Shown piece after piece: positions 9,869 through 54,321 of a stretch of DNA of 64,000 nucleotides. Origin of the DNA: an uncultured bacterium (lineage in GTDB: Bacteria; Krumholzibacteriota; Krumholzibacteriia; LZORAL124-64-63); assembly GCA_963732385.1 (NCBI GenBank), contig CAVSZB010000004.1, positions 168,989-232,988 on the forward strand. The letters run 5' to 3'. The position numbers were made by a program, and so were the translations under genes. Under the pieces are notes generated by a model that worked only from the letters and a program-made list of their open reading frames with translations, did not search any database and was not told the origin of the DNA. The stretch's first letter is position 1, and each line of letters begins with the position of its first letter.

Positions 9869-10864
9869 CTATAGGTCGGCGATCGCGATTTCGCGCCGTT
9901 GGCGGTGGGATCGGTAGCAGGCGGCGACGATTTCCAGGGTGCGCAGGCCGTCCTGCGCCGTGACCGGCGGCGCGGGGCGCCGCAGGTCGCGCGCGTTGGC
10001 GAGCCAGTCGCCCAGCACGAGCGGCAGGGTGGGGGAGGCGGCCGACACGTCGTCCGTCGTTATCTCGCGCCCCCGGATGACGCGCAGACCGCCGAACTGG
10101 TAGTCGGCCAGAAGCTGACCCTCCTCGCCGACCGCTTCGAGCAGACAGCCGCGCGTACGGCCGAACTTGCTCACCTCGAAGGAGACCAGCGTGCCATCGT
10201 CGAGTTCGGCGCGGGCAAGGAAGAGATCCTCGCAGGCGTGGTTGCGCCAGCTTCGCTGGCGGGAGTCCACGGCGACCACTTCACGGCCGGTGAGGAACCG
10301 CGCCAGATCGAAGATGTGCACGCCGGTCAGCAGGACCGAGCCGCCGCCCGCCGTCGCCGGATCCTGCTGCCAGGCGAGCGCTGTCGGCTCGAGCCGTTGC
10401 GCCAGGCGCACGAGACGCACCGGGCCGAGCGTCGGCCAGAGCTGTCGCGCGCGCCGCACCACCGGATTCCAGCGCAGGGTCTGGGCGAGCATGAGGGGCG
10501 GGGCGCCGCTCGCCGTGCCGTCGGCGTCGAGCCGCGCGAGGGCGCGCGCCTCGTCGAGGGTGGCGGTGAGCGGCTTTTCGAGCAGCAGCGGCTTGCCGGC
10601 CGCCAGCACCGCGCGCGCGAGTTCGAAGTGCGAGGAGGGGGGCGTGGCCACGATTACACCATCGACGTCGGCGGCGTCGATCAGGCGCGCCGCGTCGGCC
10701 TCGTAGCGAACGCCGGTTTCCCGCGCGAGCGCCTCGCCGGCTGCGCGGTCGCGCCGGCAGAGGGCGGTGGGGCGCAGCCCCGGCACGTCGCCGAGCGCGT
10801 GCCGGAGGTAGCGCCCCCCGTGAACGCCGGCGCCGATGACGCCGACACGCAGCGGTGTCGCCAT
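9869..10864 (-). CDS. Gfo/Idh/MocA family NAD(P)-dependent oxidoreductase
   Basis: MATPLRVGVIGAG Rossmann motif, ATPPSSH, LLEKPL, GGGSVLLTGVHIFD; ATG overlaps the cytochrome stop (TGATG). Confidence 0.9.
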   Translation of the reverse strand: MATPLRVGVIGAGVHGGRYLRHALGDVPGLRPTALCRRDRAAGEALARETGVRYEADAARLIDAADVDGVIVATPPSSHFELARAVLAAGKPLLLEKPLTATLDEARALARLDADGTASGAPPLMLAQTLRWNPVVRRARQLWPTLGPVRLVRLAQRLEPTALAWQQDPATAGGGSVLLTGVHIFDLARFLTGREVVAVDSRQRSWRNHACEDLFLARAELDDGTLVSFEVSKFGRTRGCLLEAVGEEGQLLADYQFGGLRVIRGREITTDDVSAASPTLPLVLGDWLANARDLRRPAPPVTAQDGLRTLEIVAACYRSHRQRREIAIADL

Positions 10865-12213
10865 CAGGGGCGCGCCGCCCAGGTGAACTGGTGCGGCCAG
10901 GCCGCGGTGTTGGACGGCACCGATGTGTGGCAGATGTTGCAGGCCGACGGCTGCGCGCCGGAGCCGCCGTGTTCTTCGCCGAAATCGCCCGCGCCGCCGC
11001 CGTGCGAGTTGTCGTGGCAGACCGCACAGGAACCGAGGCTCTTCGCACGCGACTGGTACTGGATCGACTGGTAGTTGTCGCTCGCCTCGCGGCTCGGCAC
11101 CATCGCGTGAGGGCTGCCGTGGCAACCGGCGCAGTAGACGCCGCCGTGCCCTTTCGCGTTCCGGTACAGGACGGCGCCGGTATCGACCTCCTGCACGCCG
11201 CCGTGGCAGGTCACACATTTTGGCTCGCTCACCCAGGGGACGCGTCCGCCTGTCGCGATGCTGGAGGCGACCTGCGCCAGGTCCCCGTGGCACGCCACGC
11301 AGTGCCCGTCATCGGCCGTATGGGCCAGGCTGCGCGTGCACTTCGTCACCGCGCCGGGATGGCAGTCGTAGCAGGCGGCGCCCCGCGCGGCATGCGAGCC
11401 GTGGATCACGCGCGACAGGTAGTTTTCCGGGTCGTCCGGGGTGGCGCTGCCCAGGGCGGGGCTGGCGTGGCATGATGCGCACAGGATCGGTTTGTTATCG
11501 ACGTGGCTGGTCCCGTGCAGGACGTCGTGCGCCAGCAGGATATTGTTGAACGGGCTCACGCCGCCGCCGCCGGTCAGGCTCACCGTACCGGTGCCGCCCT
11601 GCGCGTGGCACTTCGCGCAGTCGATCTCGTCGGAGGTGGGCACCGTGCAGCGGGTCTGCGCGATGACCTGTCCGGCGCTGCGGACGGTGATTTCGGCCAC
11701 CTGGTAGGGGTTCCAGCTGTTGTCATCGAGCACCGGCACCAGCGGCACGCCGTCGACCGTGAAGTGGTCGCCGCGCAACGTCAGCGCGCCCGACAAGCCG
11801 TTGTGGACCGCCGGTTCCGCCAGGTTCAGCCCGGTGTCAACGGCGAGCGACACCCCGAAGAGCTGCTGCGCGTGCGTCCAGAACTGGGCGAAGATCCCGC
11901 CGTGGCTGTCCGTTTTTCCGGAGGAGGAGGTGTTGCCCACGATCCGGTATTCCACCGTCACTCCGCTCGTGACGACATGGGGCGGTGCGCCGCGCCGGAT
12001 CACCTGGGCCCAGATCGTGTTGTACGGCGGCAGGATGACCGCTTCGTCGTAGGTCGGATTGAGGCAGTGCATGCCGAGGTCATTCCAGGCGATCACAATG
12101 GTCTCGCTCTGCTGGATGCCGACCGCGTTGACATCCTGGCTGCTGCAGCCGCTCAGCGCCCACGCCAGCAGGGGCAGCGCCCCCCACGTCAAACACGACA
12201 GTCTGTGCTTCAT
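10864..12213 (-). CDS. multiheme (8 CxxCH) c-type cytochrome, predicted lipoprotein
   Basis: Lipobox LSG-C; CAKCH, CASCH, CYDCH, CVACH, CVTCH, CAGCH, CAVCH, CNICH; N-terminal heme-free domain with AWNDLGMHC. Confidence 0.92.
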   Translation of the reverse strand: MKHRLSCLTWGALPLLAWALSGCSSQDVNAVGIQQSETIVIAWNDLGMHCLNPTYDEAVILPPYNTIWAQVIRRGAPPHVVTSGVTVEYRIVGNTSSSGKTDSHGGIFAQFWTHAQQLFGVSLAVDTGLNLAEPAVHNGLSGALTLRGDHFTVDGVPLVPVLDDNSWNPYQVAEITVRSAGQVIAQTRCTVPTSDEIDCAKCHAQGGTGTVSLTGGGGVSPFNNILLAHDVLHGTSHVDNKPILCASCHASPALGSATPDDPENYLSRVIHGSHAARGAACYDCHPGAVTKCTRSLAHTADDGHCVACHGDLAQVASSIATGGRVPWVSEPKCVTCHGGVQEVDTGAVLYRNAKGHGGVYCAGCHGSPHAMVPSREASDNYQSIQYQSRAKSLGSCAVCHDNSHGGGAGDFGEEHGGSGAQPSACNICHTSVPSNTAAWPHQFTWAARP

Positions 12214-12533: not shown

Positions 12534-13181
12534 ATGTCGAAGCGCCATCGCGCCCCGTTCTCCGTCTGCCTGTTGTGTGCCGCCGCGCTCGGAGTGACTT
12601 CGTCATCCCCGGTCGCAGCGGCGGTCGTGCTGTCTGAAATCCTCGGCGACCCGGCCCGCGACTGGAACGGCAGCGGTGCCGTCGACAGCCGTGACGACGA
12701 ATGGGTCGAAGTGCTCAACACCGGTCCCGACCCGGTCGATCTCGCGGAATACTATCTGCGCGATGCGCTGGGGACCGAGCCGCATCTGCGTCTGTCCGGC
12801 CTGCTGGCGGCGGGGGAGGTGCGCGTCTTCCACGGCAGCGACGCGGTAGCCTGGCAGACGGCGCAGGAACTGACTCTCACCGGGCTCTCGCTCAACAACG
12901 CCGGCGACACCGTCGAATTGCACCGCGGCGTTCCGGGCGAGCCCGGTTCGCAACTGGTCGACGTCTACATCTATCGCGACCATGAGGCGGAGGACGATCG
13001 TTCGAGCGCCCGTCAGGCGGATGGCACCTGGATCCTGTTCGACTACTACCTGCCGTACACCGGCGCGCTGACACCGGGCGGCAGTGGCTGCGCCCCTTCG
13101 CCCGGCGCCGTGAACGTCTGCGAAGGCAATGTCGCCGACGAGCGGTCGAGCTGGGGGGGGCTCAAGAGCGACTACCGCTGA
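12534..13181 (+). CDS. exported lamin-tail-domain (LTD) protein with a C-terminal WGxLKS motif
   Basis: Signal peptide; VVLSEIL..DEWVEVLNTG..VDL..LNNAGDTVEL..SPGAVN LTD signature; ends VADERSSWGGLKSDYR. Confidence 0.85.
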   Translation: MSKRHRAPFSVCLLCAAALGVTSSSPVAAAVVLSEILGDPARDWNGSGAVDSRDDEWVEVLNTGPDPVDLAEYYLRDALGTEPHLRLSGLLAAGEVRVFHGSDAVAWQTAQELTLTGLSLNNAGDTVELHRGVPGEPGSQLVDVYIYRDHEAEDDRSSARQADGTWILFDYYLPYTGALTPGGSGCAPSPGAVNVCEGNVADERSSWGGLKSDYR

Positions 13182-53895: not shown

Positions 53896-54321
53896 ATGGA
53901 ACGTCTGCTGGCGCGCAGCCTCACAACGATCGCCGTGGTCATCGCCGTCGTGGCGCTGGTGGCGGCGGTCAATGCGAATCCCACCCACATGGCGCAATTG
54001 CCGGCGTCCGCTACGCTGGGTTGCGCAAATTGTCACGTAGGCGGGACTGCCACGGAGGCGCCCAGCGTCGAGTTGAATTCGTTCGGCCTGGCCTTCAAGA
54101 ACAACGGCAAAGTCTGGAATCAAACTCTGGCGAACGGCAACGCCGACCAGGACGGATGCACGAACGGTGTCGAACTGGGCGATTCCGACGGCAACGGTGA
54201 GCCGGACGGGAACCAGACCCGGCAGACCAGCAATCCGGGCAGTAGCGGTGACTGCCATCCGAGTTCGATTGATGAACAGACCTGGGGCGCCCTGAAGAGC
54301 CTCTTCAACAGTAACAAGTAA
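53896..54321 (+). CDS. exported temptin-like protein with one CxxCH and a C-terminal WGxLKS motif
   Basis: Signal peptide; CANCH; LNSFGLAFKNNGKVW..DQDGCTNGVELGD..SNPG; ends EQTWGALKSLFNSNK. Confidence 0.8.
   Translation: MERLLARSLTTIAVVIAVVALVAAVNANPTHMAQLPASATLGCANCHVGGTATEAPSVELNSFGLAFKNNGKVWNQTLANGNADQDGCTNGVELGDSDGNGEPDGNQTRQTSNPGSSGDCHPSSIDEQTWGALKSLFNSNK

Follow-up and report, generated by a model that had tools for sequence, protein, structure and literature searches.

A short C-terminal tail on small exported proteins of uncultured bacterial phyla, possibly a miniature signal linked to type IX secretion

In type IX secretion (T9SS) the translocon is thought to read the shape of its C-terminal signals rather than their sequence (PMC10994853). 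The structurally described C-terminal domains (CTDs) are beta structures, the shortest of which hold 40–55 residues in three strands; these short CTDs, from Prevotella intermedia, are still cut and glycosylated and have been modelled on PorV (PMC11969387). For the PorU cleavage site PMC4560394 gives the consensus X/(GSA)(VLI), and PMC11969387 alternatively PT/GI; a conserved Lys is reported for KLIKK-type CTD ends (PMC11285876). The tail that we describe here, of about 17 residues and with the consensus x-V-[PA]-x-[ED]-x-x-[ST]-W-G-x-[VI]-K-x-L-[YF]-R, is a real, widespread and uncatalogued C-terminal tag. It is made of two modules, a site resembling the linker that precedes a CTD and then a predicted amphipathic helix with a near-invariant lysine.

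The window, which is the whole stretch of 64,000 nucleotides analysed, corresponds to C4:168989-232988 of G000, an uncultured Krumholzibacteriota genome (3.82 Mb, 9 contigs, 95.8% complete) whose genes were called with a codon model built within the analysis. The original prediction had pointed to two exported proteins sharing a C-terminal motif, and both tails are indeed present: window positions 13131-13181 read VADERSSWGGLKSDYR and then a stop, at the C-terminal end of ORF 12534-13181, which matches the Pfam LTD family at 39.6 bits (cut-off 34.3), and positions 54262-54321 read SSIDEQTWGALKSLFNSNK and then a stop, at the C-terminal end of ORF 53896-54321, a Temptin_C match of 50.4 bits (Table 1). 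As had also been proposed, both proteins show a signal peptide by our heuristic, with neither a lipobox nor a later transmembrane segment. Of the 54 called genes of the window, these 2 alone have the motif in their last 20 residues. The LTD protein family is conserved across records named Krumholzibacteria and Eisenbacteria, and close homologues of the PorV and LTD proteins of this genome carry mostly Krumholzibacteria names. A multiheme cytochrome c lipoprotein with several CxxCH motifs is encoded at window 10864-12213 on the minus strand, divergently from the LTD gene.

Table 1. The two tail-bearing genes of the window and the parts of their tails (window positions)
Feature	Position	Strand	Basis
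Exported lamin-tail-domain (LTD) protein, 215 aa, cargo 1	12534..13181	+	Pfam, signal-peptide heuristic, AlphaFold2 model
Tail module 1 of cargo 1, V-A-D-E-R-S, offsets -6 to -1	13131..13148	+	Pre-CTD linker-like site; lower-confidence coil in model
Tail module 2 of cargo 1, S-W-G-G-L-K-S-D-Y-R-stop	13149..13181	+	Short helix at model residues 178-185, predicted amphipathic
Exported temptin-like protein, 141 aa, cargo 2	53896..54321	+	Temptin_C match, signal-peptide heuristic
Cargo 2 tail, SSIDEQ-TWGALKSLFN + three extra residues	54262..54321	+	External profile 22.9 bits

Far from being confined to these two proteins, the tail forms the C-terminus of 22 ORFs in the genome, and their division into 17 cargo clusters rules out a single gene family with a common end. 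Among 45,722 stop-to-stop frames (6.5 million residues) there are 14 instances of the core [ST]WG.[LIVM]K, 13 of them no more than 13 residues from a stop, and no motif match appeared when all gene ends were shuffled 200 times. A tail profile retrieved the 22 ORFs above 35 bits, the next best reaching 14.6, and a second profile built from 246 tails of other genomes found the same 22 at 22.9 bits or more (next 14.5), the temptin-like tail being the lowest of them. Frame counts, shuffles and recovery by the external profile thus rule out chance or low complexity as the origin of the tail. The distance from S/T to the end is exactly 10 residues in 18 of the 22 tails and 11, 12, 13 and 31 in the remaining four. 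The count leaves out a degenerate 23rd tail, borne by a lipoprotein at C1:11924, whose score is under 7 bits. The Cys-closed domain end originally described before the motif did not prove general, Cys being found at −8 in 5 of 21 tails. When Pfam and NCBIfam models were run against 21 tails and the 21 full proteins, none covered the tail, in agreement with the earlier expectation that no characterised sorting-signal HMM would do so, and TIGR04183, PF18962 and PF13860 matched neither set. A literature search of main texts, largely of open papers, found no description of it.

Several tail loci are irregular. One tail gene exists in near-identical duplicate at C6:433-1350 and C5:402804-404108, one copy lying at a contig end beside CTD fragments. 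ORFs L194:6991-7185 and L373:631-1236 hold little more than a tail and could be either remnants or free tail peptides; they comprise a signal peptide with the tail almost immediately behind it and a possible ORF of 18 residues just past a tail gene. A frameshifted tail gene and a frameshifted beta-helix CTD gene (L004:5705-6900, L368:954-2559) represent assembly errors or pseudogenes.

The expected enrichment among exported proteins was borne out, since signal peptides were predicted in 20 of the 22 tail ORFs and in 868 of 2,839 other called genes (p 7e-9). These were called by a heuristic rather than by SignalP, with the starts of tail ORFs sought over the whole frame; identical start-codon treatment gave 18 of 19. 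The two misses are a remnant and a frameshifted gene whose signal peptide lies upstream across the frameshifts. Cargo domains over cut-off comprise LTD, Temptin_C and GSDH, as well as the NCBIfam choice-of-anchor W and E domains in two cargos, and choice-of-anchor domains may take alternative sorting signals. Tail-bearing frames are small (median 262 aa, maximum 434) in comparison with the 97 CTD frames (median 725, 20 of them at or below 434 aa). One beta-helix cargo family has the tail at its end in 13 sequences but, in this genome, a V-G-I-D-E linker plus a frameshifted CTD. Hydropathy rules out a transmembrane anchor, no such segment being present in 21 tails, where the top 19-residue Kyte-Doolittle mean was 1.18. 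Within near lengths only, no CTD or PEP-CTERM Pfam label was found among the 120 listed of 403 close LTD homologues or in any of 14 close choice-of-anchor W homologues, so that no anchor swap was found among these sequences. Fusions of tail and CTD were likewise absent from 121 metagenome matches (without taxonomy), the 22 ORFs here and 39 Coatesbacteria-type tails. The supposed restriction to non-lipoproteins fell away, as lipoproteins of other genomes also carry the tail, and three of these bear two to four copies, some internal: P0255 has four, P0325 two, and P0256 a duplicated domain plus tail. Members of one lipoprotein family (P0255, P0256, P0325, C1:11924-12817 and C7:1059429-1060238) appear to hold zero, one degenerate, two or four tails.

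As for the anatomy of the tail, AlphaFold2 modelled the LTD protein of the window with a coil linker (pLDDT 71) and a terminal helix at residues 178-185, and a Zixibacteria-type protein with a coil linker and a terminal helix at residues 127-136 (pLDDT 61-68), that is, with helices of 8–10 residues or about 2.5 turns. The hydrophobic moment of the pattern-selected tails was highest at 110 degrees (0.64 vs 0.50 at 180). A six-column linker motif was learned solely from 53 pre-CTD linkers of this genome, those with a usable anchor among 84 CTD ends; it reads T/V-G/A-V/A-P/T-D/G and reached a log-likelihood of 174, against 105–118 in 5 shuffles. On the tails this motif peaked at offset −6 in three sets (21 here, 119 external and 39 Coatesbacteria-type) and at −11 in a low-GC variant (36 tails), and in each of the four sets none of 1000 composition-preserving shuffles attained its score. 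The likeness of tail and linker is nevertheless relative rather than close, because the mean linker-profile scores of the tails are negative (−0.9 to −2.4 bits). In 24 of the 39 Coatesbacteria-type tails (background 1.8) and 23 of the 36 low-GC tails (background 2.3) the PorU consensus stands at a single, fixed position; its strict form was found in 2 of the 21 tails of this genome, 16 of the 119 external ones and 2 of 14 of the Zixibacteria type. Pro occupies the would-be P1' in 10 of 21 tails here and 60 of 119 external tails, compared with 5 of 53 CTD linkers. The tail K, five residues from the end, parallels the conserved Lys of KLIKK-type CTDs (PMC11285876); in the CTDs of this genome a basic residue sits six from the end.

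The original prediction had set the tail apart from the T9SS, a view at odds both with this linker-like first half and with a SprA gene (C4:162089-168616; L019:2089-8613; 452 bits, cut-off 200) that ends 373 bp to the left of the window. This SprA/Sov homologue is divergent from lptFG-like genes. The genome further contains five PorV-family genes over cut-off, 87 FlgD_ig and 67 TIGR04183 CTD matches, and a PorU-like gene of 416 bits (cut-off 420) with a C25 domain of 222 bits. The latter precedes PorV in one operon together with genes for an M6-like CTD protein, two small proteins, an NHL protein and a SprA-like protein some 1,100 aa long, an order that recurs in G190, G213 and G284 and, in part, in G181 and G304. 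In a quick tree of 30 of 72 matches from five genomes plus 6 own rows, the PorV of this operon grouped with one PorV from each of five other genomes (support 97), and in G181, a single case, two tail genes directly follow the PorV, NHL and SprA-like genes on the same strand. Searches of the genome for GldM and PorP (PF11751) gave no match, the controls being likewise silent, and the exosortase search gave 19.8 bits, below its cut-off of 25.7. Among relatives at least 95% complete, SprA was present in 70 of 70 (59 by PF14349, the other 11 by TIGR04189); it exceeded cut-off in 21 of the 24 tail-bearing genomes reached by pattern, with G183 and G184 giving no more than weak matches, and in all five tail-rich Coatesbacteria-type genomes, and the PorV family was found in 128 of 128. 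Co-occurrence of the tail with SprA, PorV and the PorU-like sortase is weak evidence for a T9SS-linked reading, because all tested lineages generally carry T9SS-like genes, kin are not independent and Zixibacteria-type genomes mostly hold 0–1 tails.

Other features of this gene set deserve mention. The SprA-like protein of about 1,100 aa (L018:15756-19043; C7:233756-237046) has a short SprA-like segment and no Pfam family, recurs in the PorU-PorV operons of G000, G190, G213, G284 and G181, and is possibly a second, smaller translocon. At L147, L148, L149, L151 and L152, PorV paralogues lie either immediately downstream of the gene for a large protein whose CTD end is of a variant kind or in one gene run with it, an arrangement that recalls type B cargo-shuttle pairs; the paralogue in L152 is split, and a PorV2-like paralogue at L150:7486-8508 stands as an orphan. 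Two Zixibacteria-type genomes (L245:8581-11730, L246:7564-10167) have PorV fused to the back of a beta-propeller region. Around the tail genes of this genome no common or dedicated neighbour gene was seen.

Contrary to the idea of a lineage-specific signal, the tail spans no fewer than four groups at phylum level. A DNA pattern with the stop included matched 180 of 181 genomes of the phylum, with about 3,300 matches (reversed control 0–2 per genome), and 94 of 101 genomes around an Eisenbacteria-titled record, while a related pattern was found in 20 of 25 genomes around a Coatesbacteria-titled record, six of which hold 44–60 copies. These 44–60 tails stand alongside 36–49 CTDs, and a trade-off between tail and CTD numbers was not seen. 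In a Zixibacteria-titled sample the pattern reached 45 of 81 genomes, many near control level, with TWG[KR]IKALF in 28 and mostly 0–1 tails per genome. All 14 fetched of these 28 genes belong to one secreted family of about 135 aa, in which 8 of 16 invariant columns fall in the last 10 residues. The gene (L155-L168) is single-copy, encodes a secreted beta-sandwich with an almost invariant tail, always lies downstream of a gene that we take from its sequence to encode a Rex-like repressor, and has a STAS and anti-sigma pair next in 7 of 14 cases; no homologue was found in G000, and a fold search with the protein returned generic small beta-sandwich matches only. A collection scan added at least 127 tail loci, whose titles name Eisenbacteria, Krumholzibacteria, Fibrobacteraceae and, in a few cases, other groups, or unnamed bacteria. 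Records titled Fibrobacteraceae or Fibrobacter sp. (L021, L039, L040, L049 and similar) appear to belong to the phylum of this genome; such titles are probably mislabels, because the phylum sample of 'Fibrobacter sp.'-titled G187 overlaps that phylum, and true Fibrobacter cargo was discarded as a candidate. A profile search retrieved at least 1,672 protein clusters (50% identity) at E ≤0.001. The proposed C-terminal restriction held in 147 of the best 150 of these matches, which lie within 3 residues of the C-terminus; the other three are the multi-copy lipoproteins. K is the same in every one of 146 aligned tails, a set largely chosen by pattern. The Trp of the motif as first drawn often gives way in the LTD family, where, among the 120 listed of 403 homologues, K is kept in 98% and W in 56% (otherwise mostly F), the strict motif occurring in 58.

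A role of the tail in sorting or attachment, as first suggested, appears likely. We are evenly divided on whether the tail is a miniature T9SS-linked signal for small cargo, an alternative to the CTD; this reading is favoured because of the linker site at fixed distance, the beta-helix family that ends in either the tail or a CTD linker, and the split in size between the two kinds of cargo. The cargo would be exported by Sec and fold in the periplasm, whereupon the helix, with its W, V/I, L and Y/F face and its near-invariant K, would be held at SprA by PorV or one of its paralogues, and the cargo would cross the outer membrane. Where a small residue stands at P1' of the linker site, that site would be cleaved by a C25 sortase, which would attach the cargo or set it free, whereas Pro at P1' would leave the tail uncut, or to another C25 paralogue. 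Somewhat more doubtful, and advanced tentatively, is the stronger proposal of a fourth class of T9SS signal, in which a 17-residue sortase site with one short helix replaces the folded CTD of small cargo in at least four uncultured phyla and is read by a PorV-family barrel of a T9SS-like machine without a recognisable Gld motor. The rarity of the strict PorU consensus here (2 of 21), the frequent Pro at P1' and the helical fold speak against a T9SS link. These last two features would suit a docking peptide rather than an export signal. Its helix would bind some conserved receptor or scaffold of the envelope, perhaps a surface-layer protein or a carrier with a CTD, and small proteins would thus be tethered or piggy-backed without being cut. 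Multivalent docking accommodates the lipoproteins with two to four copies better than a single export signal does, because the copies are tandem and some are internal. The tail tolerates as many as 21 further residues behind its helix, and in the Zixibacteria-type family half of the invariant columns crowd into the last 10 residues, as for a tight, fixed interface. Docking leaves unexplained, however, the fixed distance of the PorU-type site in four sets, and the exact 10-residue spacing to the end in 18 of 22 tails and the want of a visible common neighbour gene also tell against it; we regard it as possible but doubtful. The T9SS-linked and docking readings may overlap, if the partner is a T9SS part holding uncut cargo.

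Direct binding of membrane lipid or LPS through the W/V/L/Y face and K/R edge, with no protein reader, would be consistent with the hydrophobic moment peak at 110 degrees in the pattern-selected tails and with a helix predicted in two unrelated cargos. Lipid binding seldom requires such residue identity as that of K, kept throughout the largely pattern-selected alignment and in 98% of an LTD family not chosen by motif; with a fixed spacing to the end and a helix of only about 2.5 turns, we consider it unlikely. The free C-terminus on Sec cargo and the conserved site upstream of the helix could make the tail a tag by which a tail-specific protease or a chaperone of the periplasm recognises its substrates in turnover or maturation, unrelated to the T9SS. 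That is very improbable in our judgement: the lineage range of the tail matches T9SS-like genomes in every set tested, internal copies exist, and no such protease is linked to the tail here.

Whatever its reader, the tail singles out a large group of envelope or surface proteins that lack annotation, amounting to at least 1,672 clusters from uncultured phyla of wide occurrence. For that reader a clean bait is available in the single-copy Zixibacteria-type gene. Should the T9SS-linked reading be true, a 17-residue helical signal would overturn the requirement of size and fold for T9SS signals, and it would provide a synthesisable peptide to probe recognition by PorV and PorU as well as a compact export tag.

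Compared with known systems, the tail, judged by model matches and make-up, is not a member of the type A, type B or tripartite families. With the tripartite signals (LPXTG, PEP-CTERM, GlyGly-CTERM and MYXO-CTERM; 10.1101/2023.06.07.544157) it shares its shortness, its many copies per genome and its place at the C-termini of unrelated exported proteins, choice-of-anchor domains included; it differs in having neither a transmembrane segment nor an Arg cluster (one K and one terminal R), and the exosortase match of this genome is below cut-off. Type B CTDs with their PorP/SprF shuttles (PMC12618676) provide a precedent for alternative signals with dedicated barrel shuttles, paralleled here by several PorV paralogues, most of them beside their own large cargo gene. 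Those signals, however, have about 100 residues or more, against about 17 in the tail, whose genes have no adjacent shuttle; no type B model matched the tail, nor PF11751 the genome, where the control was silent. The type A CTDs (TIGR04183, PF18962; PF13860-type here) likewise pair a Sec signal peptide with a signal at the C-terminus of diverse cargo, have a conserved Lys near a basic C-terminus and occur in the same genomes as the machinery; the flexible linker in front of them has a PT/GI or X/(GSA)(VLI) site, which the linker site of the tail resembles in some of the variants. They are beta-sandwiches of 70–80 residues, unlike the tail of about 17 residues with its predicted helix, no motif B or D, frequent Pro at P1', small cargo and tandem copies on some lipoproteins; where a type A signal would be a folded beta sheet of 40 residues or more that bears motifs B, D and E, the two models show coil and a helix of 8–10 residues. 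The short CTDs of Prevotella intermedia (PMC11969387) keep 40–55 residues, three strands and motifs B, D and E, whereas the tail keeps no strand; they nonetheless supply a precedent for a shrunken T9SS signal.
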